Assembly: GCA_020632575.1 (NCBI GenBank)
Contig: JACKFH010000012.1
Location: forward strand, 1-64,000
Origin: Candidatus Omnitrophota bacterium
GTDB taxonomy: Bacteria > Hinthialibacterota > Hinthialibacteria > OLB16
DNA length: 64,000 nucleotides
Direction of reading: 5' to 3'
Shown here: positions 36,877-62,009 of the stretch, piece by piece
How positions within the stretch are numbered: position 1 is the first letter of the stretch
How the letters are laid out: each line of letters begins with the position of its first letter
The notes under the pieces: model-generated
Told to the model about the DNA's origin: nothing
Database searches by the model: none
The model's input: the letters and a program-made list of their open reading frames with translations, nothing else
Translations under genes and position numbers: made by a program

Positions 36877-39383
36877 CGTCGCTTTTGGTTCTTCTCGAAT
36901 ATATGGGGCCGACATTCGACCAAGCGAATCAGCTAAAATCAACCAGAAGGGGAGGGGGACTTCGATCCTCCTCCCCGTTCCTTGTTTTGCTTGTCCTATC
37001 GACCGGTCTGATCGATTGCATTTCACCCTGTTTTGCCAATGTCATTGGGGATTTCCGAGTTGATGGAACCTATTCCTCCGACCCCGCGGATGTCCTCAAG
37101 GTGATTCAAACGCCGATCGGGGCCTCGCTCTCGAGTCCCTCGACTCGACTCTCTCTCTCCGAGGATTTGCGCCGGATCAGCGAGCTCGGGGTTTACGATC
37201 CGCTCGATCTCCGAGTCGAAACGGAAGGTCCGGAAACCCTCAAGACCGTGGTCTTTAAGGTTAAGGAATATCCCCTCGTCCTCGACATTCGCTATATCGG
37301 CGACACCGAATACAAGAAGAAACGGCTCGACACCGAACTGGGGTTCGAGGCCGACCAGAAGATCTTCTTCCGGCCTGGATTGATTGACCAGTTCGAAGAT
37401 AAACTCGAAACCTTTTATAACTCGAAGGGATTTTCAAACGTCTTCATCGAGGGGAGAGAAGGGGAGAACACCGACGCCGGAGTCATTCTCGAGTTTGTCA
37501 TCGAAGCCGGCAACAAACTCAAACTCCAAGAGGTAGGTTTCGAGGGGAACACCGCTTTCACCGATAAGGAATTGCGGAAGGTGGTCAAGACCAAACCGAA
37601 AACCCTGCTCCTCTTCCGAAAGAAATTCGATGAGGACCTTTTCGATCAGGACATGCAGCGGCTCAGGTACTATTACCAATCGCATGGTTTCCTCGAGGCC
37701 GATGTCGAGAAGGGAAGCCAGACCCTGGTCAAGAACGACAAACGTCTCGATGTCAACTTCGAGGTCGAGGAGGGGCCCCAATACTTGATGGGGGATGTCT
37801 ATGTCGAGGGCGCCAGCACCTTCAGCCGCTCCGAACTGATGGCGCCTCTTACCATCCAGCCACGGGATGTTCTGGATCGCCCCAAACTCATTCAGGACCT
37901 TCAGGAAGTCCGATCGATGTATTGGAATCAGGGATATGTCCTGGCTCAAATCGAACCCGAGATCGTTCCCGATCCCGACTCGAGGTTGGCCGACCTCTAC
38001 CTTCGCATCACCGAAAACCCTCGCCTCAGACTCCGCAATATCAGAATCCAGGGAGTTGGAGAGGCCGCTGACGGTTCGACCTTCGATGTGCCGCTCGAGA
38101 CCAAGGATTATGTCATCCAACGAGAGTTCACCCTCGAACCCGGAGAGGTGCTCGATTGGTCGCAGGTCGATGAAACGGAACGCAAACTAATCAACACTCA
38201 ATTCTTCGAAAGCCAACAGGCCGTCTTTCCGCCTCGGTTGAAACACGGGTTTCAACTCGAACCGGTTCTGGACACCGATGAGGCGGACCTGCTCCTGCAA
38301 CTCGAGGAGACCGACACGGGATTCATCCAATTCGGCGGCGGTTTCTCCACCGACTACGGGCCCTCTCTGAATATCGAGTTCAAAGACCGCAACGCCTTTG
38401 GTCGCGCTTGGCAGTACAGCATCGGAGCGGACATCGGAAAACGTCGCACCTCGGTCGATTTCTCCTTCTATAATCCAAGGGTCAACAACTCCCTCTATTC
38501 GACCCGATACAGTCTCTTTTACCGGGATGTCGACAGGATCGGCGGACGCCAATTCGGAGAGAAACGCATCGGCGGCTCCTTCGCGTTGGGACGTCGGCTT
38601 TCGGACACCACTTCCATCTCGTTCGGTTATGGTCTGGAGCGAGTGGAGATTCAAGACATTAAGGATGAATTCATTCTTAGAGAACCCGATGACATCAACG
38701 CTGACATCGTCGATCGACTATTCACCGAAGATCCAAACACCACTAGCAGCGTCAACACCCGTCTGACTCGGGACACTCGAGACTACGTTCTGTTTCCCAC
38801 AAAAGGCGCCTACGACGTCTTGGGCGTGGAGGTCGCGGGTCTTGGTGGCGACAACAATTTCACCAAATTCTCCGGAACATTCGACCGCTTCTTCAAACTC
38901 CGGGAAAAACTTGTCTTCGCGGTCCGGGGTCATGCGGCGTTTGCTAATCCCTTCGGCGATACTGAAGACATCCCCCTCCAAGAGCGGTATTTCCTAGGCG
39001 GCGCCAATTCAATCAGAGGTTTCCGGTCCAGCGGTGTTTCCCCTTATCGAATCGTCCGGAGCCGAGTCGAGGATATTGACGGAACCGAGATTATTGAGGA
39101 CGATGAACTCCTGATCGGAGGGGAGGCCGAGTGGTTTTCGAACCTCGAACTCAGGTATCGTTTCAGTGATGCGGTCCAGTCGGTTGTGTTCTTCGATTCC
39201 GGCAGCGTCTATGAGGAGGTCGGAGACTTCGATTTTTCCGACATTCGGGCGTCTGTTGGAACTGGATTGCGGTTGACTTTGTTCGGAAACGCTCTTATCC
39301 GGTTGGACCTCGGGTTCCCGGTGGCAATGGAAACGCAGGATGAAAAACAGAGCTTTCAATTCAACTTTGGGGCGAACTTTTAA
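36873..39383 (+). CDS. bamA: Outer membrane protein assembly factor BamA (Omp85 family); start uncertain
   Basis: Signal peptide, POTRA-like repeats and a C-terminal Omp85 beta-barrel ending in an aromatic residue (...QFNFGANF). Followed by skp and lpxD, the conserved envelope cluster. Confidence 0.8.
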   Translation: MTSLLVLLEYMGPTFDQANQLKSTRRGGGLRSSSPFLVLLVLSTGLIDCISPCFANVIGDFRVDGTYSSDPADVLKVIQTPIGASLSSPSTRLSLSEDLRRISELGVYDPLDLRVETEGPETLKTVVFKVKEYPLVLDIRYIGDTEYKKKRLDTELGFEADQKIFFRPGLIDQFEDKLETFYNSKGFSNVFIEGREGENTDAGVILEFVIEAGNKLKLQEVGFEGNTAFTDKELRKVVKTKPKTLLLFRKKFDEDLFDQDMQRLRYYYQSHGFLEADVEKGSQTLVKNDKRLDVNFEVEEGPQYLMGDVYVEGASTFSRSELMAPLTIQPRDVLDRPKLIQDLQEVRSMYWNQGYVLAQIEPEIVPDPDSRLADLYLRITENPRLRLRNIRIQGVGEAADGSTFDVPLETKDYVIQREFTLEPGEVLDWSQVDETERKLINTQFFESQQAVFPPRLKHGFQLEPVLDTDEADLLLQLEETDTGFIQFGGGFSTDYGPSLNIEFKDRNAFGRAWQYSIGADIGKRRTSVDFSFYNPRVNNSLYSTRYSLFYRDVDRIGGRQFGEKRIGGSFALGRRLSDTTSISFGYGLERVEIQDIKDEFILREPDDINADIVDRLFTEDPNTTSSVNTRLTRDTRDYVLFPTKGAYDVLGVEVAGLGGDNNFTKFSGTFDRFFKLREKLVFAVRGHAAFANPFGDTEDIPLQERYFLGGANSIRGFRSSGVSPYRIVRSRVEDIDGTEIIEDDELLIGGEAEWFSNLELRYRFSDAVQSVVFFDSGSVYEEVGDFDFSDIRASVGTGLRLTLFGNALIRLDLGFPVAMETQDEKQSFQFNFGANF

Positions 39384-39501
39384 TACCTGTTCAGCTTCCG
39401 GTCGGATTGAAAGAGTTGCATAGGGGATTTCCGAAGGGGTAGGGTGGCGTCCGCATTCACCACAAACATTTTAAGTTGCATGATTGCAAGGAGTTAGTGA
39501 A

Positions 39502-40029
39502 ATGAGAAACGAATGGCTGATCGTTATCGCCTTCATTTTAGGGATTGTGTTCACCAGCACTTTCGACAACAGCGCGACCGCTCAGCGGCAGGAGTTGTTG
39601 GCTGTGCGATTTGTGGATCTCGTTCGAGTTCGGGATGAGTTCAAAGATTACCAAACCGCCCTTTCTCAGATTAAGACGAACAAGGAGAAGGAACAGGGCG
39701 AGCTGGATGATATGGTCTCCATGTTCGACAAGAACGTGAAAAACTACGAGCTCAAAGAGGGCCTCATCACTGAGGAAGAACAGAAACTCGAACTCGAGCA
39801 ACTCAATCAAAAGTACCAAACTCTTCAGGAGACTCATCAGCAAATGAGCCGCGAGCTCGAAATGAAGAGCCGCGAAATACTGAAACCCTTGTTGGATCAG
39901 ATGAAAACCGCCATCGAACAGGAAGCGACGTCGAAGGGATACCACCTGATCTTCTGGAAAAAGGATTTGGCGTATTCGGATTCCCGTCTCGATATCACCG
40001 ACGATGTCCTCCTGATCTTGAACAAATAG
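39502..40029 (+). CDS. skp: Periplasmic chaperone Skp (OmpH)
   Basis: Met at 39502 is preceded by AAGGAG. Signal peptide and a long coiled-coil OmpH domain. Confidence 0.7.
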   Translation: MRNEWLIVIAFILGIVFTSTFDNSATAQRQELLAVRFVDLVRVRDEFKDYQTALSQIKTNKEKEQGELDDMVSMFDKNVKNYELKEGLITEEEQKLELEQLNQKYQTLQETHQQMSRELEMKSREILKPLLDQMKTAIEQEATSKGYHLIFWKKDLAYSDSRLDITDDVLLILNK

Positions 40030-40041
40030 GGGACCGAACCT

Positions 40042-41064
40042 TTGGAAAAACTTCGATTGGACGAATTGGCGAAACGGATCTCATGCGAGGTCCAGGGGGA
40101 TCCCTCGGTGATCATCGAGGGGGTCAACACCCTCGACGCCGCCAAACCCGGAGAACTCTCCTTCGTTCACAACGAGAAGTACATCAGCCAGATCAAGGAC
40201 TGTAAGGCCTCCGCGATTGTGGTTCCCTACGATCTCGAAACGGATTTCCGTCCGCTTCTCCGATCCCGCGATCCTTATGTCACTTTCGGAGAGGCCATGC
40301 GCATCTTCTTACCCAGGAGGCAGAGACCCATGCCCGGCATTCATCCCTCGGCGGTGGTGGCGGAATCGGCGCAAGTCGATCCGGAGGCTTCGGTGGGACC
40401 CTACTGTTTTATCGGAGAGGGATCCGTGATTCAGGGTGCGGCTACGCTCATGGCCGGGACCCAAGTCGGAGACGGATGTTGGATCGGCCCCTCAGTCTGG
40501 ATTTTCCCTCAGGTGGTGGTTGGCGCCCGGACTCGCGTGGGCGAGGAGACCGTGATTCACCCGGGGACCGTCCTCGGAAGCGGACTCGATCCGGACAAGG
40601 AAATCTCGGAGGACGCTCCCAAGTATTGTGTCGAGGTTGGACGCGATGTGGAAATCGGCGCCAACGTGACGGTCGAAGCCGGCTCGAAGAATCCGACACG
40701 AATCGGTCCCGGAACCAAGATCGACAACTTGGTTAGAATCGGGTCCGGCGCTCGAATCGGCGATGACTGCATCATCGTGGCGCAGGTCTCCATCGGCGCC
40801 GGCGCGGTGATCGGCAACAACGTGACATTAGCGGGGCAGGTTGGCATCGAGCCCAACCGGCAAATCGGGGACGAGGTGATGGTGGGAGCGAAAAGCCTTG
40901 TCGAGGATGAGGTCGAGGACCGCGCGGTGGTCAGTGGCATCCCTGCCATTCGCCATGATCTCGACCTGAGGCTAAAAGCCCATTTACGCAGGCTTCCCAA
41001 ACTCTTCCAACGGCTCGAATCTCTGGAACGTCAACTCGGTGAGGTTGCCTCGGGGGAGAAGTAG
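40042..41064 (+). CDS. lpxD: UDP-3-O-acylglucosamine N-acyltransferase LpxD
   Basis: LpxD N-terminal domain followed by left-handed beta-helix hexapeptide repeats and a C-terminal helix. Context is bamA-skp-lpxD. Confidence 0.85.
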
Positions 41065-41832: not shown

Positions 41833-42685
41833 GAATCCGAATCGTTCTTCCAATCTATTCGATCCCGAAAGAGGCGAAAACCCTCTTTCTCTCGATGAAA
41901 TCCTAACACATCTTGTTACAGAAAGAATCGGTCGACACCTCACCATTCTTGAGGAGGTCGATTCCTCCAACTCCCACCTAGCCCGAGAGGCCGAAAGGTT
42001 GCCCGATGGCGCGGTCTGTGTGGCCGAACTTCAGACCGCGGGCCGCGGGCGCCATGGAAGGGCTTGGACCTCGCCTCCGCGTCGCAATTTGATGTTCAGC
42101 GTAGTGTTCAAGGAATCCTCCATCCCTGGACCGATCGCCACCCTCATCGGGGCCCTGTCTACTGTCCAAGCGACTCGGGGGGTGGGGGATTGGATCGCCC
42201 TGAAATGGCCGAACGATCTGGTTTCGGAGTCTCCGGATGATGGCGCGGTTGAAAAGAAGGTGGGCGGGGTGCTCTCCGAAACCAAAACGGATCGGGCTGG
42301 AAAACCCTTTCTCATCCTCGGGATTGGGATCAATGTGAATTCCCGCCTCGAGGATTTCCCTGAAGAGATCCGCGAACGGGTCTCCACCCTAAGTTTTCTG
42401 AGCGGTCAAGTTTGGAATCGAAATTGGCTGCTTGCCGAGATCCTGAACCGAATCGAAGCCCTTTGGAAATCGTCCGAGGCCATCGGGGCCGAGTCGATCA
42501 TCGATGAGGCTCGACGCAATTGCTCGACCCTCGGCAAACAAGTGAGATTGAGAATTGGCGACCAGGTCATCGAGGGGGAGGCGGTCGACTTGGATCCGAT
42601 GGGACGCTTACTCCTCAGGGATGAAACCGGTTACGTTTATCCGGTCGAACTGGGGGAGGTCGTCCAAGCCAGGAGGATCACTTAG
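41831..42685 (+). CDS. birA: Biotin-[acetyl-CoA-carboxylase] ligase BirA (catalytic domain only, no HTH)
   Basis: The ELQTAGRGRHGRAWTSP (GRGRxGRxW) biotin-binding loop and KWPNDL motif. The most plausible ATG at 41831 overlaps the fliW ATG on the opposite strand (TCATGA). Confidence 0.7.
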   Translation: MNPNRSSNLFDPERGENPLSLDEILTHLVTERIGRHLTILEEVDSSNSHLAREAERLPDGAVCVAELQTAGRGRHGRAWTSPPRRNLMFSVVFKESSIPGPIATLIGALSTVQATRGVGDWIALKWPNDLVSESPDDGAVEKKVGGVLSETKTDRAGKPFLILGIGINVNSRLEDFPEEIRERVSTLSFLSGQVWNRNWLLAEILNRIEALWKSSEAIGAESIIDEARRNCSTLGKQVRLRIGDQVIEGEAVDLDPMGRLLLRDETGYVYPVELGEVVQARRIT

Positions 42686-43982
42686 CGAGGTTCTCGGCTT
42701 CGGTGACCTCGATCGAGGAAGGATCCAACAAAGGTTCCGAAAACTCCCGCCGAAGGCTGATCGCCCAGACCAAGAAGAGCAGGCCGACTGTCGCGAAGAA
42801 CGCCGCCCCAATGGGAATCCTGGCGCTCGACAAAAAACCCATTCGAACCGTTCCCGCACTTAGGAGAAGAATCATCGCGGGGACCCGGAAGAACTCACTT
42901 ATCAAGGCCCACCTCTTTCTCTCCAACAAGCCTCCGACCGAAAGGAGGGCCCAAAGGATCATCATTGCGGCAAGAAATTTTTCACCGAAGGGAAGCGTCT
43001 GCTCGGTGAACATCAGAGCCGAAACCAACCCCATCAGGGTCAGAAACTGAAGGAAGGTGTAGGCAGTGAGCCCCTTCCCGATGGGGATGTCGAACTTCTG
43101 GTAAGTCCGATACCGGACCGTCTTTTCAGGCGGGGTGGGTTCCACCCCCTCGGGCAGCCATGGAGGCGATTTGACCCAAACCAACACCTTCTCCTTCAAC
43201 CGTTTCGCCGACCGGGAGAGGTTGAACAGCCGAACCCAATAGTGCAGGTGCCCCCAAATCGGATTCCAACTGCGAAGCGGGGTGACAATGCCATAAGTCG
43301 GGTCCTCTTCCTCCTCCTGGAAGGTGCCGAACATCCGATCCCAAATGATAAAAACCCCGGCGTGGTTCTTGTCGATGTACTTTTCGTCTGCGCCGTGATG
43401 GACACGGTGATGCGAGGGGGTGTTCATGATCCACTCGACCGGGCCGAGTTTGCCGACCATCTGAGTGTGGACCCAAAACTGATAGAGGAGATTGATCTGG
43501 TAACAGATGACCCACATCGGCCATGGGAAACCGATGAACGCAAGCGGCAGATAAAAGGTCCAGGTGAACAGAGACTCGGTGGCGCTCTGACGCAACGCGA
43601 CAGTCAGATTCATCTCCTCGCTGGAGTGATGAACCACATGGCAGGCCCATAGAAAATTGATCGTGTGACACATCCGATGCGACCAATAGAAACAAAAGTC
43701 GACCAGGACAAAAGCCACAATCCAAGCCACCGGCGAGTTCAGCCCAATCTCGAGGAGGTGAAAGGATTCGTAACAGAGGATATACGCCCCGATCACCGCG
43801 ACCTTGGCGAAGATATCCAGGGTCCGATCGAGAATCCCCATATTGATATCGGTGATCGAATCGTTCAGCCGATAGACCTTCCTCCCTTTCCATTTGGCGT
43901 AAAGGATCTCCAGCCCGATCAACCCATAGAAGTAGGGGATGGCAAGAAGGATCAATAACGCGGCGACTTTCTCCACATCCAT
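42678..43982 (-). CDS. Fatty acid hydroxylase superfamily membrane enzyme (sterol-desaturase-like) with extra C-terminal membrane domain
   Basis: Histidine boxes HRMCH, HVVHH and HHRVHHG in an N-terminal four-TM region. The C-terminal roughly 150 aa carry additional TM helices. Confidence 0.6.
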   Translation of the reverse strand: MDVEKVAALLILLAIPYFYGLIGLEILYAKWKGRKVYRLNDSITDINMGILDRTLDIFAKVAVIGAYILCYESFHLLEIGLNSPVAWIVAFVLVDFCFYWSHRMCHTINFLWACHVVHHSSEEMNLTVALRQSATESLFTWTFYLPLAFIGFPWPMWVICYQINLLYQFWVHTQMVGKLGPVEWIMNTPSHHRVHHGADEKYIDKNHAGVFIIWDRMFGTFQEEEEDPTYGIVTPLRSWNPIWGHLHYWVRLFNLSRSAKRLKEKVLVWVKSPPWLPEGVEPTPPEKTVRYRTYQKFDIPIGKGLTAYTFLQFLTLMGLVSALMFTEQTLPFGEKFLAAMMILWALLSVGGLLERKRWALISEFFRVPAMILLLSAGTVRMGFLSSARIPIGAAFFATVGLLFLVWAISLRREFSEPLLDPSSIEVTEAENLAK

Positions 43983-44595: not shown

Positions 44596-46026
44596 ATGTT
44601 CCCACATCGAATCGCGATCCTCCTCCTCGCTCTCGCTCTTCCCGCCCACTCCGCCACTTTGTTTGTCTCCCCCGATGGAACAGGCGCGGATGGCCTCTCC
44701 TGGAACACCGCCTTCCCCACCATCGGACAAGCCATTGTCGCCTCGACCACCGACGATGAAATCTGGATCAGGTCCGCGACCTATGTGGAAAACATCACCA
44801 TCGAGAGACCTCTGACTCTCCTTGGTGGATTTGTCGGGTCGGAAACGTTGGGACAACGAAATTCGAGGGACCCGAGTCAGCATCCCACAGTGATTGACGG
44901 GAACCGAAACGGTTCGGTGGTCAGAGCGAAGGGGCCGATCACTCTCGATGGGTTCTCCATCGTGAACGGGTTGGCGCGATTGGAGGACGGGGATCTGGGG
45001 TCTGGACTCCTCCTCTCCGATGCGACGGCGACACTCACTCGGTTGAAACTGTCCGGAAATGGAGAGTTCACTCGACGTCAAAGCAGTGGAGGAGGTGGAA
45101 TGTATGCTGAAAACTCGACTATTCGCATGACCGACTGCCTGATGACCAAGAACCTCGCCGGGGAGGGCGGGGGCGCTATGTTCACCGGTTGTGCAATCGA
45201 GGTGAGAGATTCGCTTATAGGATCGAACCGTGGTTGGATCGACGGAGCGGGACTTTACATCCGGGATGGATCGTCGGTCTTCCTTAACACGGAAATCTCC
45301 GACAATTTGGTGAATGGCGGGGATGGTGGAGGTTGTTACATCGAGTCCGGACATGCCGCCTTTCTTGGCTGTCAGTTTCTTGAAAACGTGGTCTACCATT
45401 TCTCTCCCGGGCCTCTCCCGGTTCCGTTTTTAGTCAAATTCGGTGGGGCGGTGGCCTGCTATCGGGTTGAGGAAGTTCGCTTTGTCAATTCGCTTTTCAC
45501 GGGGAATCGAGGCACGGGTGTGGGGCTCACGGCGGGCTCGGTATTGTACTCCAAGGATTCCGAACAGATTCACTTCACCCATTGCACCATCATTGCTCTC
45601 CAGTACGCCTCCTTTTCCGCACAGGACCAGCCGATCCATATCGAGAACAGCCTGGTTGTCGGCCAGGACTTAGACAGAATTCTCCAGCCAAGTCCCGTTT
45701 CTTACAGTCTCATCGAGGGTGGGCACCAGGGCGAAGGCAACATCGACGCCGATCCGTTGTTTGTCGATCCGAAGAACGGCGACTACCGACTGCGGTATGG
45801 CTCCCCCTGCATTGATGCTGGTGCAGAGACGGATCTGATGATCGACCTCGATGGGAACCCGCGCCCCGTGGATATCATCGGACTCGGGTGCGATGGACCC
45901 GACACTTTTGATATGGGGGCTTATGAGTTTCAATCGCCGCGATCGGATCTCAACGGGGACGGGTATGTGAACCACTTGGATTTGATGATCCTCCAACAGG
46001 ATTGGGGCAAGGTGTCCGGGCCTTGA
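44596..46026 (+). CDS. Secreted right-handed parallel beta-helix protein with C-terminal dockerin-like module
   Basis: Signal peptide, then GxxG/NxxG beta-helix repeats (pectate-lyase-like). The C-terminal DLNGDGYVNHLDLMIL is a dockerin/EF-hand-like Ca-binding repeat. Confidence 0.55.
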   Translation: MFPHRIAILLLALALPAHSATLFVSPDGTGADGLSWNTAFPTIGQAIVASTTDDEIWIRSATYVENITIERPLTLLGGFVGSETLGQRNSRDPSQHPTVIDGNRNGSVVRAKGPITLDGFSIVNGLARLEDGDLGSGLLLSDATATLTRLKLSGNGEFTRRQSSGGGGMYAENSTIRMTDCLMTKNLAGEGGGAMFTGCAIEVRDSLIGSNRGWIDGAGLYIRDGSSVFLNTEISDNLVNGGDGGGCYIESGHAAFLGCQFLENVVYHFSPGPLPVPFLVKFGGAVACYRVEEVRFVNSLFTGNRGTGVGLTAGSVLYSKDSEQIHFTHCTIIALQYASFSAQDQPIHIENSLVVGQDLDRILQPSPVSYSLIEGGHQGEGNIDADPLFVDPKNGDYRLRYGSPCIDAGAETDLMIDLDGNPRPVDIIGLGCDGPDTFDMGAYEFQSPRSDLNGDGYVNHLDLMILQQDWGKVSGP

Positions 46027-46138
46027 TCTTGCCCTCTTCGACCGTGTGCCGGTGGTCCAGGCGAAAGAGGAGGGAATGACACTGGTGACACGGGATGCGT
46101 TTTTGGAGGAGTATGGGGTGGCGGTGATGGGGGCGTAG
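46025..46138 (+). pseudogene. Remnant of a PIN-domain (VapC-like) toxin C-terminus
   Basis: A 37-codon frame reads DLALFDRVPVVQAKEEGMTLVTRDAFLEEYGVAVMGA. It resembles the C-terminal ...A.A..G..LVTRD..F end of VapC toxins. No N-terminal part or antitoxin is present. Confidence 0.3.
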
Positions 46139-46739
46139 TAGCAATACAATTCCCCATCACAACTTACTCAGCATAACGAATAAAATCATTATGACGACCG
46201 CGACCAAAAAAGTTCCGTAAGCAAGCGCGACTATTCTGTCACCTTTAGGGAAAACATGGGTGGTCCTGCTGACGAGGTCCCGGTATTCTTGAAACTCGGT
46301 CCATCCCTCGTGTGAGGGTGAGTCGAGGTCGAGGAACTCTCCGCTGCTTGTATCGAATGCTGACCAATTGTTTTGCTTTGCACAAATTCGCGATCGATGT
46401 GATGGGGTCTCCGCCCCCTCGAACGTGAAGCATCATCGTAGCCGTCTCGCCTGTCTCCTGGTGGTTGAACTCGATCGACCAACCATCGCCTTGAAGAACC
46501 CCCCAAGCCGGGTCGCTCCAATCCACCCCGGGTTCAGAGACTCCTTGAGACCTTTTCACGTATCTCGGCAGGCGTCACCCATTGCTGGTGGATCGTTGAA
46601 AGCATCCGACAGATCATCCGTATCGGGGGATCGCCCTGGAAATTGTCGAGAAAGATACGACATCCCAACGTAGATCTTTTCTCCTCCGGACAATGATTTG
46701 CAGTTCAGCACCAATCCTCAACTTGACCCCTTTGATCGG

Positions 46740-47185
46740 ATTTGATCGTCCAAGGAAAGAGGAGGGACTTGCTGCCTGCGCCGAGATTCCCTTCTCGGCG
46801 CAACTTTAGCAGGAATCCCTTCCTGCGAAACGGACCCTCTTCCTTAATCCTCCAATTCAAACCTCCGGCGAGCGACAGCACGAAGGGATTCGTGCGGAAG
46901 TGGGTTCGAGATGGGAATCTCGAACCAGATCCTTTGAACCGCGAATCGTCTGAGTCCGTTTCAACGGACGGCTCTCTGCGTAGCGACGGAATTGATTCCG
47001 TCGCGGACTTCGCTCGATCCCGAAGACTCCATCGCCTCCCACGCCCCGCTCACATCGGAACGGATTCCGACGTGGGATAGGAACGAGGCGGGAGCCACGT
47101 TCCAGCAACTACCAGGGTTTCAACCCTGGGCGACCGACCACACCCCAACAGGTTCCCCCGCCAAAAGTTTCCGTTTACTCTCCCA
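46740..47185. other. Hairpin-dense non-coding region (candidate structured RNA / long 5' leader) upstream of the oxidoreductase-radical SAM cluster
   Basis: Contains at least 7 perfect stem-loops. Examples: GCGCCGAGA-N6-TCTCGGCGC; GCAGGAA-tccc-TTCCTGC; GGTTCGAGAT-ggga-ATCTCGAACC; CGACGGAA-ttga-TTCCGTCG; TCGGAA-cgga-TTCCGA; CCAGGG-tttcaa-CCCTGG. No credible ORF. Confidence 0.3.
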
Positions 47186-47212
47186 TCCGTTGAATCTTTG
47201 AAGGGAAACCCT

Positions 47213-48631
47213 ATGGCACGGAGCGTCATTTTGGGGGCGGGGGTGGCTGGGCTGGCGGCTGCTTACCATTTGCAGCGTCTCGGTGAAAAAGACCCCCTTG
47301 TCCTCGAGAAAAACCCATACCCCGGCGGCCTCGCCGCCACCATGGAATGGAACGGTTGCCGAATGGACCTCGGCCCTCACCGTATCCATACGGTCTACCC
47401 GCGCGCCGATGAACTGATCACCGAAATGGTCGGCGAGGACCTGATCGTCCGCAAACGGACCAGCCAGATCTTTCTCGATGGTCAGTGGATGGATTACCCC
47501 CCACGCGCCGGGGAGATGTTCCGAAAACTCGGCCTGCTCACCGCCGCGAAGATCGGCCTTTCCGCTCTTCAGGGCAAAGTTCGCGGTCTCAAGAACAAAG
47601 TCACCGGGAATCCCCCCGAAAGTTATGGGGACTACCTCGCTGAAAGGTTCGGCCCCTATGTCCGCGAACTCATCTTCGATCCGTTCGCCCTGAAGGTCTA
47701 TCGCGAGGAGGCGGATGACCTCGATGTCATGGTGGCCAAAGTGCGCCTCGCCAGCCAGGGGATATTCTCCATGCTCAAAGAGGCGATCACCGGGAAGACG
47801 GCGTCCGCAGTCAAGAAATTTCGGTATCCCAAACAGGGCATGGGATTGATTTCCGCCCGCCTCCAACAGCATATCGAGAAAGAGGGCGGGGAAGTCCTCC
47901 TCGGCCACGAGGCGACTCGAATCCGCCACACCGGCGGGCTGGTTCGATCCGTGGAATTCGAGGATCCCAATGGCGAGAAGATGTCGGTCGAGGCCTCGCG
48001 TGTCATCACCACGATCCCGCTACCCATCCTGGTCGACCTCCTTGAACCGAAACCGAACCAGGCTGTCCGAGACGCCGCGGAGAATCTCACCTACGCGGAC
48101 TCCTTTTTGGTCTACACCCTGGTCAACCGGAAACCATTGACCCCCAACTGCTGGATGTATTTCCCGGGGGATGAAACCGTCTTCAGCCGGGTCTATGAGA
48201 TCTGCCACTTCTCCCCCGAAATGACCCCGGAGGGCCAGAGCTGCCTCTGCGCCGAAATCCCCGCTCGGCCCGCCGATCCCGTTCAGTTCACCGATGAGGA
48301 GGACCTGAAACAGCGGGTTTGGGAGGGGTTTGTCGAGACCGGGATGGCGAGAGACGCCGAATGCATCGATCAGGTTGTCCTGAAAATCCCACGCGCCTAC
48401 CCGATCTACCGCAAGGGGTATAAGGAAGATCTCGGAACCATCCTCGAACACCTATCAACCCTCGGAAACCTAATTAGCACCGGACGCCATGGCCTCTTCC
48501 ACTACAACAACAGCGATCACAGCCTGGAAATGGGCCGTTTAGCCGCCGAATACGCCCGTCAAACCCCCGAAAAAAGCGAGGGTTGGTACAGTAAACGAGA
48601 TGAGTTTGACCGATACCGAATCGTGGATTAG
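47213..48631 (+). CDS. FAD-dependent oxidoreductase (amine-oxidase / protoporphyrinogen-oxidase / phytoene-desaturase-like superfamily)
   Basis: ATG at track 47198+15, after AGGGAA. N-terminal Rossmann motif VILGAGVAGLAAAY...LEKNPYPGG. Confidence 0.7.
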   Translation: MARSVILGAGVAGLAAAYHLQRLGEKDPLVLEKNPYPGGLAATMEWNGCRMDLGPHRIHTVYPRADELITEMVGEDLIVRKRTSQIFLDGQWMDYPPRAGEMFRKLGLLTAAKIGLSALQGKVRGLKNKVTGNPPESYGDYLAERFGPYVRELIFDPFALKVYREEADDLDVMVAKVRLASQGIFSMLKEAITGKTASAVKKFRYPKQGMGLISARLQQHIEKEGGEVLLGHEATRIRHTGGLVRSVEFEDPNGEKMSVEASRVITTIPLPILVDLLEPKPNQAVRDAAENLTYADSFLVYTLVNRKPLTPNCWMYFPGDETVFSRVYEICHFSPEMTPEGQSCLCAEIPARPADPVQFTDEEDLKQRVWEGFVETGMARDAECIDQVVLKIPRAYPIYRKGYKEDLGTILEHLSTLGNLISTGRHGLFHYNNSDHSLEMGRLAAEYARQTPEKSEGWYSKRDEFDRYRIVD

Positions 48632-48706
48632 ACTAAGCCTCGACGAAGGCATCCTATCGTCCCATTTTGATTGGGTTTATTGCTGAATCGATCATTTAGA
48701 ACCACC

Positions 48707-50141
48707 ATGCGCGGAAATGAAATCAAAACAGCTTTTCTAATTGTCCCCCCACGGGAAAAATCATCCGGGAGGAGCGCTGCCAGACCCCCATCGAGGGTCT
48801 GCACACAGTCGCCCTGCGCCCGCCGATGGACCTCCTCTACATGGCGGCGGTCCTCGAACAAAACGATGTGAAGTGCACACTCATCGACTACCCCGCTCAG
48901 GACAAGGATTGGGAGGATTTGGAGGAGGATCTCAAACGCCTTCGCCCCGACCTCTTCCTGATTTCAATCACCACCCCGACTCTCGACCGCGACCTCCGCG
49001 CCGGGAAACTGGCCAAGACAATTCGCCGTGACACCTTAGTCGGAGTCAAAGGCGCCCATTTCTGGCGGGATAACCCAAGAATTCTTCTCAAATACCCGAT
49101 GCTCGATTTCGCCATGATGGGCGAATATGAGGAAACCATCGGAGAGTTCGTCACCAAACCGGATTGGAAGGAAGTTCCGGGCCTCATCTACCGCGATCAG
49201 GGCGAGGTCCATTCGACCGGCAAACGGGAACTGGTCCAGAACCTGGACGACATCCCCTATCCCGCGCGTCATCTGATCAAAAATTCAGTTTACATCCGCC
49301 CGGATACGGGGGAACTCCAAACCACCATTGTCACAAACAGGGGCTGCCCCGAGAATGCGTCTTCTGCCTTGCCCCGCGTGTGAGCGGTCGCGAGAACCGC
49401 AGACGTTCCATCCCGAACATCATCGGTGAACTGGAAAACTGTGTGAAACAACACGGCATCCGCAATTTCCTATTCCGGTCTGACACCTTCACCCTCGATC
49501 CCGACTGGGTGATTCGCCTCTGCAATGGAATCCAACGCGCGGGCCTCGACATCAAATGGTCCTGCAACAGCCGGGTCGACACTCTGAGCGGAGAGGTCCT
49601 CCGGGCCATGAAGGATGCTGGCTGTTGGATCATCTCCTTCGGCATCGAGAGCGGCTCCCAAGAGGTGCTCGACCTCATGAAGAAGGGCATCACCAAGGAT
49701 CAGGTCCGCGCCGCCCTCAACCTCTGCCGGGTGGAGGGCATTCTCTCCTCCGTCTATTTCCTGATCGGCGTCCCCTGGGAGTCGGAAGAAACCTTTCGAG
49801 AGACCCTGGATTTCGCTCGTCAGATCGATCCGGATATCGTTGAGTTCTTCTATGCCTACCCCTTCGAGGGGACCGAAATGTATGTGACCGCCGCCAATGA
49901 GGGACTGATCGAGCGCGGCGATTTCCCCATCAGCGCCTACTCCAAACCGGCGATGCCCACCAAGCACCTGTCGATGGAGCGCCTGGAGGGGATGAGAAGC
50001 GAGGCTCTCAAGGATTTTTATTTGCGTTGGCCGGTGATCTCCCGTACCATAAGAAGGGCGAGATCGCCTAAAGTTTTTCTGAATTACGCTCGATTTGGGA
50101 TGGCGCAACTGACGGATCTGGTCACCACCCAAAGGAATTAA
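48707..50141 (+). pseudogene. B12-binding radical SAM enzyme, paralog 1, disrupted by two -1 frameshifts in poly-C tracts
   Basis: The N-terminus MRGNEIKTAFLIVPP (48707) continues in another frame as PTGKIIREERCQ...PPMDL after a C6 run (48745-48750; C7 expected). A second shift at a C4 run (49347-49350; C5 expected) splits TNRGCP | RECVFCLAP, the CxxxCxxC radical SAM motif. With both fixed, the product aligns end-to-end with paralogs 2 and 3. Confidence 0.6.
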
Positions 50142-50143
50142 AG

Positions 50144-51601
50144 TTGAAAATGAAAAGGCACAAAATCCTCCTGCTCAATCCCCCGGGGCAACACCGATAC
50201 ATCCGGGATTACTACTGCAGCCATATCTCGAAGGCGAACTATATCTGGCACCCCTACGATCTTTTTGTTCAAAGCGGGATTCTGGGCGAACAACACGATC
50301 TCGTCGCCTTCGACGCCAACATCGACAACACGACCCCCGAGCGCACGGCCCAGTACTTGAGCACGCTCGATTTCGACACCGTTTTGATGCTTTCCGGAGC
50401 CGTCTCCTGGAAGAGCGATCTCGGATTCGCCAAAAAGTATCTACAGGACAAGACGCTCATCGTCTCCGGCGACATCACCATCGCGAATGGGCGTGACTTG
50501 ATGGACCGGTATCCTTTCATCGACGCCACCCTCCAAGATTTCACCCAACCCGGAGTCCACCAATTCTTGGAGCAACTCGATGAAAATGGCGGCGGCCCCC
50601 TAAAAGGGAACACTCCCATCCAAGGCATCACCTATCGCAATTCCGACGGCGAATTCGTCGACGGGCCCGTTTATCCGGCCTACGGTCATTTCACACATCC
50701 CGCTCCGAAATACGAACTTTTCCCTTGGAAGAAATACCGGGTCCCCCATGCTCGCAAGGTTCCGTTCGCCTCGATGCTCACCGACTTCGGGTGCCCCTAT
50801 CACTGTAACTTTTGCATCACTGGAACATTTGGTTACCGCATGCGAGACCTCGATAATGTCGAGATGGAACTGAACTATCTGAAGACTCTTGGCATCGAGG
50901 ACATCTGGTTCAAGGATGTCGTCTTTGGAGTCAACAAACGGCACTATTACGGTCTCCTTGAACTCCTCAAGAAACCCGAACACAAGTTCCGCTGGGCGAC
51001 TCTCTCCCGTGTCGATGTGGTCACCGACGACATCTTGGTGAAGATGGCCGAGGCGGGTTGCCACACCATCCAATTCGGAGTCGAGAGCAGCGACCCCGAC
51101 ATCTTGGAGTCGATCGAAAAGGGAATCAGCCCCGAACGTGTCAAAGAGGTCTTTAATCTCTGCCGCAAACTCGGCATTCGGACCTTGGCGCATTTCATTA
51201 TCGGCCTGCCCGGAGAGACCATGGAGACCGCGAAGCGAACCATCGACTTCGCCCTCGACATCGACCCCGATTTCGCCTCCTTCAATGTGGCCTCGCCCCG
51301 AGTGGGGACGCCCTTACGGGATGAGGCCATCGAAAAAGGCTATATTTCGGACGAATTGACAGAACTCGATAACTCCATCACCTTTCCCACGATGGATTTG
51401 GGGACATTGTCCAAGGAGGATGTGTGGAGGTTGAGGAGCGAGGCGGTTCGCCGTTTCTATCTTCGTCCCTCTTACCTCTACCGCAGGCTCACCGGAGTTC
51501 GATCGTTCCGTGAGTTGACCAATTCGATTTTCGAAGGAACCAACTTGGTGGTGAATTCTCTGAATCCGAAACCCGACCCGGCGGAGATGGTTGAGGTTTG
51601 A
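50144..51601 (+). CDS. B12-binding domain radical SAM enzyme (class B), paralog 2
   Basis: N-terminal cobalamin-binding-like Rossmann domain (KILLLNPP...), then a radical SAM core with FGCPYHCNFC and an Elp3-type TIM barrel. 485 aa. Starts 3 nt after paralog 1. Confidence 0.75.
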   Translation: MKMKRHKILLLNPPGQHRYIRDYYCSHISKANYIWHPYDLFVQSGILGEQHDLVAFDANIDNTTPERTAQYLSTLDFDTVLMLSGAVSWKSDLGFAKKYLQDKTLIVSGDITIANGRDLMDRYPFIDATLQDFTQPGVHQFLEQLDENGGGPLKGNTPIQGITYRNSDGEFVDGPVYPAYGHFTHPAPKYELFPWKKYRVPHARKVPFASMLTDFGCPYHCNFCITGTFGYRMRDLDNVEMELNYLKTLGIEDIWFKDVVFGVNKRHYYGLLELLKKPEHKFRWATLSRVDVVTDDILVKMAEAGCHTIQFGVESSDPDILESIEKGISPERVKEVFNLCRKLGIRTLAHFIIGLPGETMETAKRTIDFALDIDPDFASFNVASPRVGTPLRDEAIEKGYISDELTELDNSITFPTMDLGTLSKEDVWRLRSEAVRRFYLRPSYLYRRLTGVRSFRELTNSIFEGTNLVVNSLNPKPDPAEMVEV

Positions 51602-51642
51602 TTGCCTCCATCGCCGTCTTGAACAACATCTCGAGGAATAGA

Positions 51643-53007
51643 ATGAACTGGAATTTTTGTCGTCATTATCGCTGTGTCTTAACCTGTCTTCTGCTGGCGC
51701 TTGTTGTCGGCTGCGGAAAGCCTTCGCCGGATGAGCTTCTGCAAGAAGGCATCGAACTCATGCGTCAACAAAACTTCGTCTCCGCGCGCCATCGGTTCCA
51801 AGAAATCGCCGACAACTATCCGGACTACGATCTTATTTCGACCGTCAAGTTGAATATCGCGGACTGTTACGCTCTCGATGGCCAGCTCGGCAAAGCGCGA
51901 ACCGGGTACGAGGAGGTGGCCGAGACTTACAAGGGTCAGTTTACCGCTCAGCTGGCCGAGGTCAGACTCGGAGACATGGCCAAACAAGAGGAGCGTTACG
52001 ATGACGCCGAGAGCCGATACCGTTCGGTCATCGCGGAATGCACCAATCCTCGTCTGCTTATGGACACTCGCCAAAACTTGGCCGATCTTTATGTGGTCAC
52101 AGAGCAGCTTCCCAAGGCGGTCGACGCTCTAAAGGAGATGGTGGACGCTTCCCCGGATTTTCCGAACAAACTCCGGACGACTCAAACCCTCGCGAATTTT
52201 CTCATCGCGAAAGGTTCGCCCGAACAAGCCTGGACCGCCATGCTTTCGATTCCCGAGGCGACCGGATTCGAGAGAGCGAAGGACGCCTATTATCTTTCGA
52301 TCCGTCAGACCGGCATCGCCACCAAGAAGTATGACAAGGCTTCTCAGTATTTTGACGATCTCCTTAAGAGCGCCACTGATGACGATGGAAAGGCGTTGGC
52401 GCTTTATAACAAAGCGTTGATTGCCACCGCCACGACTATCAGTCGGGCGACCGGGGTTCAAATGCTTGAGGATCTCGCCAAGGAATACCCGAAAACCCGT
52501 TGGGGACGTTGGGCGGAGGTTGACGCGGCCAAGACCATTATTACCGCCAGCGACGAGTTCGATAACCCGATGGATCTTGCGGGACAACTCCTTCGCGACG
52601 CCGAGGACAATTACGATGACATCATCGCTGACACCACGGTCGAATGGTTCGAGCCCGCCAAATCCGCCAATGCGCGCTTCCAAAAAGGGGTGATTCAGGT
52701 GATGCGGGGACAGCTCCTGGAGGATATCGATGACTTGAAATCCGCCAGCCAAACCTACGCAGAGATCATCGACCGATTTCAGACCATGCCCCAGATCGCC
52801 CAACAGGCCAACGCTTACCTCCAACAGATGGCCGCGATGGTCGATATGGCCGAGGCCAGCGGTGAGGAGTTTTGGGAACAACTTCGAATGATCCGCGCGG
52901 GCGTGGACCCCTTCGCCCAGAGCGCCACCGCCGAGGCCATTCTTCCGGGGGCGACCGAGGAAATCGCCGCCGAATCGATGCCGGCCACCGGGGAGTCGAA
53001 GGAGTAA
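51643..53007 (+). CDS. TPR-like repeat lipoprotein
   Basis: Lipoprotein signal with lipobox LLALVVGC (Met at 51643). Helical TPR-like repeats throughout. Sits between radical SAM paralogs 2 and 3. Confidence 0.55.
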   Translation: MNWNFCRHYRCVLTCLLLALVVGCGKPSPDELLQEGIELMRQQNFVSARHRFQEIADNYPDYDLISTVKLNIADCYALDGQLGKARTGYEEVAETYKGQFTAQLAEVRLGDMAKQEERYDDAESRYRSVIAECTNPRLLMDTRQNLADLYVVTEQLPKAVDALKEMVDASPDFPNKLRTTQTLANFLIAKGSPEQAWTAMLSIPEATGFERAKDAYYLSIRQTGIATKKYDKASQYFDDLLKSATDDDGKALALYNKALIATATTISRATGVQMLEDLAKEYPKTRWGRWAEVDAAKTIITASDEFDNPMDLAGQLLRDAEDNYDDIIADTTVEWFEPAKSANARFQKGVIQVMRGQLLEDIDDLKSASQTYAEIIDRFQTMPQIAQQANAYLQQMAAMVDMAEASGEEFWEQLRMIRAGVDPFAQSATAEAILPGATEEIAAESMPATGESKE

Positions 53008-53031
53008 GGGTTTCTCGAAGAATCAACCGCC

Positions 53032-54546
53032 ATGATGAAAGAAGTCGAAATCCTCCTGATTCAACCGCCTACCGGCTCGTACCGGCGCGATGACCGTTGT
53101 CAATCGCGGGTGGAGGATCAGACCATCCAAGTCAGTTTCCCCCCCATGGACCTTGCTCATCACGCGGCGGTGCTCGAGGAGGCCGGTTTCCAATGCGCGG
53201 TTCGAGACTATTCCACGGCGGGTGTCGGCGTTCGGACCGCGCTGGATGAGATTCGAGCGATGGCGCCGAGGTTGGTGTTCTTTTCCTCGACTCAGCCGAC
53301 CGAGCGAGATGATTTGGCTTTCTCGAAAAAGATCAAAGAGATATCCACCGAAACTAAGATAGTTCTCAGAGGGGAATCGGTCACTTTCCGGGACTCCCAG
53401 ATTCTGGAAGCGAATCCCCAAGTCGATTTCATCCTTCGTGGAGAATCCGAGGAGACTCTCCTCGATCTGTGTCACTCTCTTTTTCGAGATTCGGAAAAGG
53501 GAGTCGACGAGATTGCGGGCGTTTCTTTTCGGTCGGACCGTGAGATCGTCCGCACCGCGGACCGCCCGTTCATTAAAAACCTGAACAATCTCCCTTGGCC
53601 CGCGCGCCATCTTCTCGATCAATCGCTCTATCGGAGCCCCGAGACCGGGAATGTGTTGACGACTCTCTACACCGCGAGAGGCTGCCCCTACCCCTGCATT
53701 TTTTGTCCCGCCCCGATTGCTTCCGGTCGACCCGTTCGAATGAGAGATGTCCCCGATCTGATTCGTGAGATCCAGCACTGCGTTTCGGAGTACGGGATCT
53801 CCGAGTTTCTTTTTCACGGGGACACCTTCACCTACAAGAAGGCTTGGGTGCTGGAACTTTGCGACGCCATCCAAAAGGCCGGACTCAAAGTCCGCTGGGG
53901 GTGCAATAGCCGAGTCGACACGATCGACGAAGAGATGCTCTCCGCCATGAAAAAGGCGGGCTGTTGGGTGATTGGGTACGGAGTCGAAAGCGGCCACACC
54001 GAGACTCTGGACAAGATCCGCAAATATGTGGAAAGGGATAAGATCGTCAGCGCCTTTCAAATGACTCGTAAGGCGGGCATACGTTCCCATGCTTTCTTTG
54101 TCTTCGGATTTCCCTGGGAGAATTGGGAGCATCTCGAGGAGGACCGGAAACTAGCCTTGGAAATCGACCCGGACTTCTTCGACCTCAACATCGCCTATCC
54201 GCTCCCTGGCACCGACCTCGAAAAGATGGTCCAGGATCAAGGTCTCTACGATTCCAACCTGGTCGACCAAGGCGGTTATGCCGTCCCGGCCACTCGAACC
54301 GAGCACCTGAGCGCTGAGGAACTCGACGCTTGGAGGAAGAAGACCCTTCTCGCGCTGTATTTAAGACCGCGCTATATCCTCCGGACCCTCTTGCTCGCGG
54401 GATCGCCAAAGAAAACCTGGAATTATTTCAAGGCGGGAACCACTCGGTTTTTCCAACTCATTCGACCCCGGGAACATGCGGTTCCCGTGCGCAACCGTCC
54501 GGAACCCACTCCTCCGACTCCGAAACCGTCGGTCGAAAGTGTCTGA
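53032..54546 (+). CDS. B12-binding domain radical SAM enzyme (class B), paralog 3
   Basis: ILLIQPP N-terminus and an ARGCPYPCIFC cluster. Aligns along its whole length with paralogs 1 and 2. 504 aa. Confidence 0.75.
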   Translation: MMKEVEILLIQPPTGSYRRDDRCQSRVEDQTIQVSFPPMDLAHHAAVLEEAGFQCAVRDYSTAGVGVRTALDEIRAMAPRLVFFSSTQPTERDDLAFSKKIKEISTETKIVLRGESVTFRDSQILEANPQVDFILRGESEETLLDLCHSLFRDSEKGVDEIAGVSFRSDREIVRTADRPFIKNLNNLPWPARHLLDQSLYRSPETGNVLTTLYTARGCPYPCIFCPAPIASGRPVRMRDVPDLIREIQHCVSEYGISEFLFHGDTFTYKKAWVLELCDAIQKAGLKVRWGCNSRVDTIDEEMLSAMKKAGCWVIGYGVESGHTETLDKIRKYVERDKIVSAFQMTRKAGIRSHAFFVFGFPWENWEHLEEDRKLALEIDPDFFDLNIAYPLPGTDLEKMVQDQGLYDSNLVDQGGYAVPATRTEHLSAEELDAWRKKTLLALYLRPRYILRTLLLAGSPKKTWNYFKAGTTRFFQLIRPREHAVPVRNRPEPTPPTPKPSVESV

Positions 54547-60860: not shown

Positions 60861-62009
60861 ATGAACGAACCAAAAAAAATCCCTTTCAACCGCGCTTGCT
60901 TTCAGGGCAAGGAACTTGTTTATATCGCCAACGCCATCGAGAACGCCCACATCTCCGGCGATGGCAAGTTCACCCGAATGTGCAACCAACTCTTGGAAAG
61001 CGAGCTCGACGTTCCGAAAGCTCTACTGACCACCAGCTGCACGCACGCTCTCGAAATGTCCGCCCTTCTCCTCGACCTCCAGCCGGGGGACGAGGTCATT
61101 CTGCCGAGTTTCACCTTCGTCTCGACCGTCAATGCCTTCGTCCTTCGTGGCGCCAAACCGATCTTCATCGATATCCGACCCGACACGCTGAACCTCGACG
61201 AAACCCAACTGGAATCCCTGATCACCGATCGGACGAAAGCGATCGTTCCAGTTCACTACGCCGGAGTCGGCTGCGAGATGGACGCCATCATGGAGATCGC
61301 GAATCGCCGGGGCATCGCGGTCGTCGAGGACAACGCCCATGGTCTCTTCGCAAAATACAAGGGGAATTATCTGGGAACCTTCGGCGGGCTCGCGACTCAG
61401 AGTTTCCACGAAACGAAGAATTTCACTTGCGGCGAGGGCGGCGCGCTTCTCATTAATGACCCGGCTTACATCGAGGCCGCCGAGATCATCCGCGAGAAGG
61501 GAACCAACCGCAGCCAGTTCTTCCGTGGCCAGGTCGACAAATACACTTGGGTCAAACAAGGTTCCAGCTACCTCCCCTCGGAACTTCTCGCCGCTTTCCT
61601 TTATGCCCAACTCGAATTCCGTGACCGCATCCAGGAAACCCGCCAGAGGATTTGGGAAACCTATTATGAAAGCCTTTCTCCCTGGGCGGAGAAACAAGGA
61701 GTCCAACTCCCCACAGTGCCCGAATACTGTGAACAGGCCTACCACATGTTTTACCTGATCCTCCCCTCGCTCGAAGCCCGACAGAGACTGATCAAGTATC
61801 TCGACGATCTCAGCATCAACGCTGTCTTTCACTATGTTCCGCTGCACCTCTCGGGAATGGGTCGCTTACTTGGTGGAGAACCCGGTCAGTGCCCGGTCAC
61901 CGAGGACTTGAGCGAACGGCTCTTGAGGCTGCCGTTCTATTATGAGTTGACTCAGGCGGATCAGGAGTTCGTGGTGGAGGCGTTGGAGAGGTTCGATGGG
62001 TGGGGGTGA
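60861..62009 (+). CDS. DegT/DnrJ/EryC1/StrS-family PLP-dependent sugar aminotransferase (WecE/ArnB-like)
   Basis: Motifs SFHETKNFTCGEGGAL (PLP-binding Lys region) and the N-terminal CTHALE. 382 aa. Confidence 0.75.
   Translation: MNEPKKIPFNRACFQGKELVYIANAIENAHISGDGKFTRMCNQLLESELDVPKALLTTSCTHALEMSALLLDLQPGDEVILPSFTFVSTVNAFVLRGAKPIFIDIRPDTLNLDETQLESLITDRTKAIVPVHYAGVGCEMDAIMEIANRRGIAVVEDNAHGLFAKYKGNYLGTFGGLATQSFHETKNFTCGEGGALLINDPAYIEAAEIIREKGTNRSQFFRGQVDKYTWVKQGSSYLPSELLAAFLYAQLEFRDRIQETRQRIWETYYESLSPWAEKQGVQLPTVPEYCEQAYHMFYLILPSLEARQRLIKYLDDLSINAVFHYVPLHLSGMGRLLGGEPGQCPVTEDLSERLLRLPFYYELTQADQEFVVEALERFDGWG

Follow-up and report, generated by a model that had tools for sequence, protein, structure and literature searches.

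A conserved five-gene cluster joining a UDP-galactopyranose mutase-like flavoprotein, three radical SAM paralogs and a lipoprotein in Hinthialibacterota may tailor an envelope sugar

We analysed a 64,000-nucleotide stretch of DNA (hereafter the window; contig JACKFH010000012.1 of assembly GCA_020632575.1, positions 1 to 64,000) from an uncultivated bacterium catalogued as Candidatus Omnitrophota, and focused on a cluster of five genes at 47213–54546. Open reading frame (ORF) listing and translation confirmed five co-directional genes on the + strand, where an earlier note on this DNA had placed them. The first (47213..48631; ORF listing, Pfam and NCBIfam) encodes a 472-aa flavoprotein of the PRK07208 type that resembles UDP-galactopyranose mutase (UGM). 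It is followed by three radical S-adenosylmethionine (SAM) genes and a lipoprotein gene: rSAM1 (48707..50141; three-frame translation and Pfam), with B12-binding-like and radical SAM domains and interrupted in the window; rSAM2 (50144/50150..51601, 483–485 aa), the most divergent of the three; an exported, all-helical lipoprotein of tetratricopeptide repeats (TPR), identified by TPR matches in Pfam and a lipobox (454-aa precursor, 51643..53007, longest ORF from 51598); and rSAM3 (53032..54546, 504 aa), again with B12-binding-like and radical SAM domains. The intergenic gaps are, in order, 75, 2–8, 41 and 24 nt, and the NCBI product of rSAM2 begins at 50150 rather than 50144. The earlier note had assumed a member of the Planctomycetota. 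This proved wrong, as the closest genomes, with 66–85% protein identity, are labelled Omnitrophota or Omnitrophica and Candidatus Hinthialibacteria OLB16, and Hinthialibacter now has a phylum of its own (Hinthialibacterota).

The flavoprotein matched Amino_oxidase (92 bits) and NAD_binding_8 in Pfam, and its top curated model was the unnamed group PRK07208.1-4 (291.6 bits, cut-off 389). It had been described as a HemY/phytoene-desaturase-like flavoenzyme, a description that did not survive comparison with the corresponding models. The HemY-type protoporphyrinogen oxidase (PPO) model scored 50.8 bits (cut-off 97.85) and CrtI 46.1 bits (cut-off 238.1); with CrtD and HpnE included, the scores spanned 46–51 bits, against cut-offs of 98–283 for PPO, CrtI and HpnE. 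The bacterial UGM model TIGR00031 also fell far short (17 bits, cut-off 303.75). In the PDB, the best matches were eukaryote-type UGMs (1e-20), followed by protoporphyrinogen oxidase (1e-11) and carotenoid desaturases (1e-5 to 1e-6; CrtI 6e-5).

To the Aspergillus fumigatus UGM (PDB 3ute), overall similarity was low though the alignment spanned most of the protein. A HMMER alignment, read with the residue roles in Table 3 of PMC3624792, nevertheless showed conservation of the His in the histidine loop, of the Arg and Tyr residues that bind the diphosphate, of the Tyr stacking on uracil and of the FAD contacts. The equivalent residues (flavoprotein = A. fumigatus UGM) are H56=H63, R425=R447 and S437=S461 for FAD; R178=R182, Y316=Y317, R326=R327, Y396=Y419 and Y431=Y453 for the diphosphate; Y95=Y104 for uracil; and N433=N457 for the sugar, with W314=W315 also aligned. 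In a subfamily alignment of 15 members reaching down to 35% identity, H56, Y95, R178, W314, Y316, R326, Y396, R425 and N433 were invariant, Y431 was Tyr or His, and S437 was nearly invariant. Unlike UGM, the flavoprotein has G-P-H instead of G-G-H in the histidine loop, and it falls in the PRK07208 group. The Pfam GLF domain appears in more distant homologs, some of which are fusions with GT2 glycosyltransferase domains. Because its closest PDB entries are UGMs, the contact residues are kept and homologs carry GLF or GT2 fusions, the flavoprotein is best described, on sequence grounds, as a UGM-like enzyme predicted to bind a diphosphate-linked sugar, and not as a HemY/CrtI-type oxidase.

The surroundings of the wider flavoprotein family were surveyed in 74 metagenome loci anchored on this gene. 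Within 5 kb, at least one glycan-type gene was present in 31 of the 74 loci, a short GT2 gene in 25/74, a B12-type radical SAM gene in 27/74 and Methyltransf_23 in 27/74. The glycan-type neighbours included GT2, GT4 and PMT_2 GT-C glycosyltransferases, Wzx-like flippases and NDP-sugar dehydratases. The GT2 neighbour was closest to AglJ, ArnC, dolichyl-phosphate hexose transferase and PpgS, all of which are polyprenyl-phosphate sugar synthases, and scored below the cut-offs of these families. At several metagenome loci (L118, positions 11361–11720, and also L119, L124 and L136), a small PterinBD-DUF4346 protein is encoded directly behind the flavoprotein homolog, between the mutase-like gene and a B12-type radical SAM gene.

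Among the radical SAM proteins, identity is 39% between rSAM1 and rSAM3 and 27–28% between rSAM2 and either of them. In other genomes each forms an orthogroup of its own, with identities of 48–73% for rSAM1, 42–76% for rSAM2 and 40–83% for rSAM3. Judged from these sequences, the three are ancient paralogs. The earlier note had called them full-length paralogs; the paralogy stands, if old at 27–39% identity, and the full length fails for rSAM1, which is frameshifted in the window. It had also given each protein an N-terminal cobalamin-binding-like domain and a CxxxCxxC core. This class B architecture (PF02310 and PF04055) was found in rSAM3 (46.8 and 82.8 bits, respectively) and, as two fragments with the cluster-binding motif split by a frameshift, in rSAM1, whereas rSAM2 matched Radical_SAM (86.7 bits) with no significant Pfam B12-binding match. 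None of the cluster enzymes, the flavoprotein included, has a transmembrane segment.

The top NCBIfam family for all three radical SAM proteins was HpnJ (TIGR03471), at 55.7 and 146.9 bits for the two rSAM1 fragments, 158.9 bits for rSAM2 (aligned over residues 33–450) and 205.6 bits for rSAM3, all below the cut-off of 577.6 bits. The best score against BchE (TIGR02026) was 180.4 bits, by rSAM3 (cut-off 481.35), and the window holds no bch genes, so the context of BchE is lacking as well. Scores for the AprD4 family (NF033070) were 102.8–161.6 bits against a cut-off of 500, though the fold similarity of rSAM3 to AprD4 is high (see below); those for the ladderane-type B12 radical SAM model TIGR04072 were 78–100 bits (cut-off 360), and that for the methylase model TIGR03975 of ribosomally synthesized and post-translationally modified peptides (RiPPs) was 85.7 bits (cut-off 281.85). 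The cut-offs of the HpnR and PhpK models likewise lay far above the scores reached. Features of RiPP maturation (a SPASM domain, a RiPP recognition element (RRE), an adjacent precursor or leader peptide) were not found for the cluster, and no Pfam families of the hopanoid genes shc, hpnH, hpnI or hpnK occurred among the approximately 45 proteins scanned in the window. With the score for every curated family far below its cut-off in the NCBIfam search, rSAM1–3 belong to no named family, which agrees with the expectation that they would fall into no well-characterized subgroup.

A profile of rSAM3 orthologs searched against the PDB retrieved AprD4 first (2.6e-51), then the glutamine methylase of methyl-coenzyme M reductase (MCR), OxsB and TokK. 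An AlphaFold (AF2) model of rSAM3 (pLDDT 87.6) contained a five-strand Rossmann-like N-domain, and its best match in a fold search was again AprD4 (6fd2; E 5e-32, TM 0.75/0.83, 23–24% identity), followed by MgmA, TsrM and OxsB. AprD4 catalyzes diol dehydration on an aminosugar and has a Rossmann-like domain, yet binds no cobalamin (PMC12931638). A B12-binding match in Pfam therefore does not show that the cluster enzymes use cobalamin, since AprD4 has the same domain without the cofactor.

All three orthogroups keep the CxxxCxxC motif at 100%. Beyond it, two further Cys residues show the same complete conservation, one within the N-terminal RCQ/YCS loop and the other within an AGC motif, and three more are common to rSAM1 and rSAM3; the invariant Cys residues of rSAM3 are C23, C218/C222/C225, C250, C277 and C311. 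The loop Cys precedes the Rossmann-like domain (C25 in rSAM1, C25 in rSAM2 and C23 in rSAM3, where it lies in YRRDDRCQ) in 115 sequences, at window positions ~48779, ~50216 and ~53098.

In the window, rSAM1 is spread over three frames (48707–~48748, to ~49352 and to 50141) that hold, separately, the N-terminal 14 codons, the B12-like domain and the radical SAM core; in Pfam, one of the two larger fragments matched B12-binding and the other Radical_SAM. The NCBI annotation of the source record contains rSAM1 as a 253-aa fragment only. An intact 478-aa ortholog is present in a sister assembly that is 98.6% identical to the window (L002, GCA_020430065.1). Compared with it, rSAM1 in the window has two 1-nt deletions, CCCTCCC>CCCCCC at ~48748 and GAAAAATGC>GAGAATGC at ~49352, the second of which hits the cluster-binding CxxxCxxC motif (CPEKCVFC in L002). 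Of 27 codon differences between the two copies, 25 are synonymous and 2 non-synonymous, which suggests that rSAM1 was under purifying selection until very recently. A second sister metagenome-assembled genome (MAG; L170, GCA_020632615.1), 99.1% identical over 14.8 kb, differs from the window by two indels only, one being the 49352 deletion. Against these 98.6–99.1% identical sister assemblies there are three indels in all, two of them in rSAM1. The deletions may reflect an error of the consensus at a spot where strains vary, or they may mark a recent inactivation of the gene. Sister contigs break inside or beside rSAM1. An apparent independent disruption in L170 was discarded, as the 299-aa product there is ended by the contig end with no frameshift. 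Programmed frameshifting was rejected because rSAM1 orthologs are single ORFs.

The lipoprotein has a signal peptide that ends in the lipobox LVVG-C, followed by GKPSPDELL, and both the lipobox Cys and xxxxP(D/E)xx(L/F) are kept in every member of its family, the distant clade described below included. In its AF2 model (pLDDT 82.7), residues 29–420 form one continuous TPR superhelix, for which a fold search returned generic TPR superhelices only, such as OGT, LGN and Ctr9. The BamD model TIGR03302 (40.2 bits, cut-off 81.4) and the YbgF-CpoB model TIGR02795 (59.8 bits, cut-off 90.1) fell below their thresholds, and the lipoprotein is about twice as long. At E<=1e-30, homologs numbered five among 1.84 billion representatives, the remaining matches being generic TPR proteins. 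By this sequence measure it is a narrow, fast-evolving family tied to the cluster, and the association of the product with the envelope, as suggested earlier, is plausible in the light of a conserved lipoprotein.

We searched for related loci using rSAM3 as the anchor in species-representative genomes and the flavoprotein as the anchor in metagenomes. The full order mutase-rSAM1-rSAM2-lipoprotein-rSAM3 was found in at least 10 related loci (L003–L006, L052, L082, L085/86, L090 and L092), with flavoprotein identities of 66–85%; orthologs in the nearest relatives are thus clustered and not scattered, in agreement with the earlier note. The same five-gene order recurred in four loci of a distant clade (L087, L088, L093 and L094), where the flavoproteins are 39–41% identical to that of the window. 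Because the order is shared by the related and the distant loci, the arrangement is not due to chance. In L087 and L088, the cluster is directly preceded by a short GT2 gene and followed by Lnt (333 bits, cut-off 133, passing at equivalog level).

Partial arrangements delimit two parts within the cluster. GT2-mutase-rSAM1-rSAM2 occurred without lipoprotein-rSAM3 in L089, L095, L096 and L108, mutase-rSAM1 alone in L099, L100 and L166, and rSAM2-lipoprotein-rSAM3 in L027, L033 and L036. The cluster looks like two joined modules, mutase-rSAM1-rSAM2 and lipoprotein-rSAM3, and their joining is old or recurrent enough to show in two divergent lineages.

Where it occurs without the mutase module, the lipoprotein-rSAM3 pair usually has an SDF transporter gene on one side and a gene for a small GcpE_C protein on the other. 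In L171 (7355–12198) and L083 (7107–12111), for instance, its neighbors are an SDF-family transporter and a 219–233-aa GcpE_C protein, similar to the C-terminal Fe-S part of IspG; this protein, a possible electron donor, is absent from the window. In L089 (345–7007), GT2-mutase-rSAM1-rSAM2 stands beside tolB, three pal/ompA genes, a YbgF-like TPR protein gene and a further 536-aa B12-type radical SAM gene.

The interpretation we tentatively prefer is that the cluster encodes a cytoplasmic pathway tailoring a nucleotide-, diphosphate- or polyprenyl-linked sugar for an envelope glycoconjugate. The reduced FAD of the UGM-like flavoprotein would attack the anomeric carbon of a diphosphate-linked sugar (carried by a nucleotide, possibly by a polyprenyl group) and alter its ring form. 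In each of the HpnJ/AprD4-like rSAM1–3, a 5′-deoxyadenosyl radical would then take a hydrogen off a sugar carbon, which could lead to deoxygenation, to ring contraction or, with bound cobalamin, to C-methylation. The product would be exported, with the TPR lipoprotein serving as a periplasmic scaffold or acceptor. This scheme builds on the observed gene order and its conservation, domains, residue conservation and contexts, and borrows the substrate class, the reactions and the role of the lipoprotein from the enzyme families. A sugar or glycoconjugate is likelier as the substrate than a hydrocarbon lipid, tetrapyrrole or polyketide because the wider family of the flavoprotein sits among glycan genes. 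In support, the nearest curated family, HpnJ, and the nearest structure, AprD4, both act on (amino)sugar rings (PMC13459092, PMC9204698).

Several observations count against a sugar-tailoring pathway. Every curated family match of the cluster proteins is below its cut-off; the galactose contact N207 of UGM is not kept, Val occupying the flavoprotein position; and MgmA, the second-closest structure to rSAM3, modifies a protein. The disruption of rSAM1 in this assembly means that the pathway is possibly incomplete in the strain. A tblastn search of the window for homologs of GT2, GT-C, flippase and Lnt gave no hits, so the connection to lipid-linked sugars rests on the relatives, and our literature search returned no paper on this gene combination and no experiments on any of its members. 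Finally, about 20 loci, that of Candidatus Hinthialibacter antarcticus (L171) among them, have lipoprotein-rSAM3 but not the mutase module, and rSAM3 orthologs are solitary in Sumerlaeota.

To our knowledge, very few radical SAM enzymes with a B12-like domain act on sugars, namely HpnJ, Cds, AprD4 and GenK; the class is large and mostly uncharacterized. The reaction proposed for HpnJ is contraction of the glucosamine ring in a hopanoid head group, and that proposed for Cds, the archaeal calditol synthase, is the same contraction of glucose (PMC13459092, PMC9204698). The cluster resembles the HpnI/HpnK/HpnJ and Cds systems, in which a sugar head group made by a glycosyltransferase is ring-contracted by a B12-domain radical SAM enzyme (PMC13459092, PMC9204698), and HpnJ is the best-scoring curated family for rSAM1–3. 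In contrast to HpnI/HpnK/HpnJ, however, the cluster scores only 147–206 bits, has three paralogs instead of one, lacks a deacetylase, adds a UGM-like flavoprotein and a lipoprotein, and lies in a window free of hopanoid genes. AprD4, a radical SAM 1,2-diol dehydratase of apramycin biosynthesis, shares the Rossmann-like N-domain, acts on an aminosugar ring and is the best match of rSAM3 by both structure and PDB sequence, whereas family scores did not exceed 162 bits, no AprD3-type reductase accompanies the cluster and the context is not that of an aminoglycoside.

The position of the relatives' cluster between a short ArnC/AglJ/PpgS-like GT2 and Lnt recalls ArnC/ArnT, GtrA/B/V and Ppm1/Pmt with Lnt, as do the PMT_2 GT-C enzymes and flippases near flavoprotein homologs. 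None of these genes is in the window and the likeness is one of context; the three-component periplasmic glycosylation systems, moreover, have no radical SAM or mutase steps. No characterized equivalent of the cluster was found. The parts are known superfamilies and radical SAM sugar tailoring is known chemistry; the combination of three paralogs with a UGM-like mutase and a dedicated lipoprotein is new.

The separate occurrence of the two modules also suits an alternative in which they are unrelated neighbors, mutase-rSAM1-rSAM2 forming a sugar pathway and lipoprotein-rSAM3 an older unit, possibly housekeeping, with no common product. Lipoprotein-rSAM3 indeed stands without the other three genes in L171, beside the SDF transporter and GcpE_C, in L083 and elsewhere among those approximately 20 loci; GT2-mutase-rSAM1-rSAM2 does so without the pair at four loci, and the solitary orthologs in Sumerlaeota point the same way. 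We nonetheless regard this alternative as unlikely: the same order with tight spacing recurs in two clades whose flavoproteins are only 39–41% identical, rSAM2-lipoprotein-rSAM3 intermediates exist, and the invariant N-terminal Cys loop is common to all three radical SAM proteins.

A further alternative is protein modification, in which the TPR lipoprotein of the cluster, or lipoproteins generally, would be altered before export by at least one of the radical SAM enzymes, much as MgmA modifies MCR. The lipoprotein gene, where it occurs, is always directly upstream of rSAM3, and the family motif stands right behind the lipobox Cys, although this motif may be simply the first TPR helix; Lnt lies downstream of the cluster in L087 and L088, and MgmA is the runner-up of AprD4 in the fold search. 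Protein modification would leave the mutase without an obvious role, and the Sumerlaeota rSAM3 orthologs have no lipoprotein neighbor. With SPASM, RRE and leader-peptide features lacking and the RiPP methylase model at 86 bits against a cut-off of 282, we consider this explanation very unlikely.

Equally improbable is the view of the earlier note, in which a desaturase- or oxidase-type flavoenzyme and three class B methylases or C-C couplers act on a hydrocarbon lipid (hopanoid, ether lipid or ladderane-like), a tetrapyrrole or a polyketide: the Amino_oxidase fold is common to HemY and CrtI, HpnJ, BchE, HpnR and ladderane-type models match weakly, and a gene similar to fatty-acid hydroxylase and alkylglycerol monooxygenase (AGMO) lies 3 kb upstream on the other strand, but the flavoprotein keeps UGM contact residues instead of reaching the PPO, CrtI or HpnE thresholds, its family context is one of glycan genes, the AGMO-like gene is not syntenic in relatives and, as that note itself had observed of substrate-synthesis genes, squalene-hopene cyclase, bch, ether-lipid and polyketide synthase genes were not found in the window.

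The base composition of the window is unremarkable, and the surroundings of the cluster include a BamA-Skp-LpxD block, BirA, the AGMO-like hydroxylase, a beta-helix protein, HPRT, components of a type II secretion system and a DegT aminotransferase. Genes for a ClpB-like ATPase, BamA (Omp85 and POTRA), Skp/OmpH and LpxD stand in a row at 34300–41064 (+ strand), an outer-membrane biogenesis block that is consistent with a diderm envelope. An MBOAT acyltransferase gene followed by one for an AlgX-like SGNH protein (27556–30283, + strand) forms a pair of the polysaccharide O-acetylation type. The lipid-related fatty-acid hydroxylase with an AGMO C-terminal domain (42678–43982, − strand) was rejected as a member of the cluster, being on the opposite strand and not syntenic in relatives. 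The DegT/DnrJ/EryC1-type sugar aminotransferase (60861–62009, + strand), 6 kb downstream, is present in the sister MAG L170 and is not near the cluster in L085.

Upstream of the cluster, small ORFs at 46245–47080 were considered as leader or precursor peptides and rejected, as they are not conserved in relatives. The gaps of 2–75 nt within the cluster are too small for such a gene, in keeping with the earlier failure to see a precursor peptide. An Rfam scan of the whole window at the gathering threshold, covering riboswitches and other known RNAs, gave only one tRNA, a permissive scan of 45900–47300 yielded no credible match, and promoter and terminator sites were no more frequent than in shuffled sequence. 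Short hairpins with GGGAAT/ATTCCC-type loops cluster at 46770–46980, approximately 250–450 nt upstream of the flavoprotein start and within a 1.2-kb stretch that has no conserved ORFs. This region contains a 45-nt inverted repeat (46782–46826 / 46878–46922) and has a predicted RNA fold of −89 kcal/mol (z = −5.9); Rfam returned no match for it, and the relatives lack the motif upstream of their clusters.

An operon conserved in this way, with three radical SAM enzymes coupled to a mutase of the UGM type, would represent a new branch of glycan chemistry in candidate phyla, as would the broader GT2-mutase-radical SAM module seen at dozens of metagenomic loci. The cluster would also yield concrete candidates for in vitro work, and it cautions that an amine-oxidase fold next to a B12-type radical SAM enzyme should not be read as lipid or pigment chemistry. 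Interest would grow with the discovery that the product is a carbocyclic or branched sugar not seen before, or that the GT2-mutase-radical SAM module is a general pathway. A bolder and rather doubtful extension of sugar tailoring is that the cluster makes an undescribed sugar, a ring-contracted, carbocyclic, deoxy or C-branched furanose, through a flavin mutase and three radical SAM steps, and that this sugar is displayed on the envelope by the lipoprotein in Hinthialibacterota and other uncultivated lineages. If this were true, the GT2-mutase-radical SAM module of the metagenomes would be a general and so far unrecognized route to radical-tailored, lipid-linked sugars.

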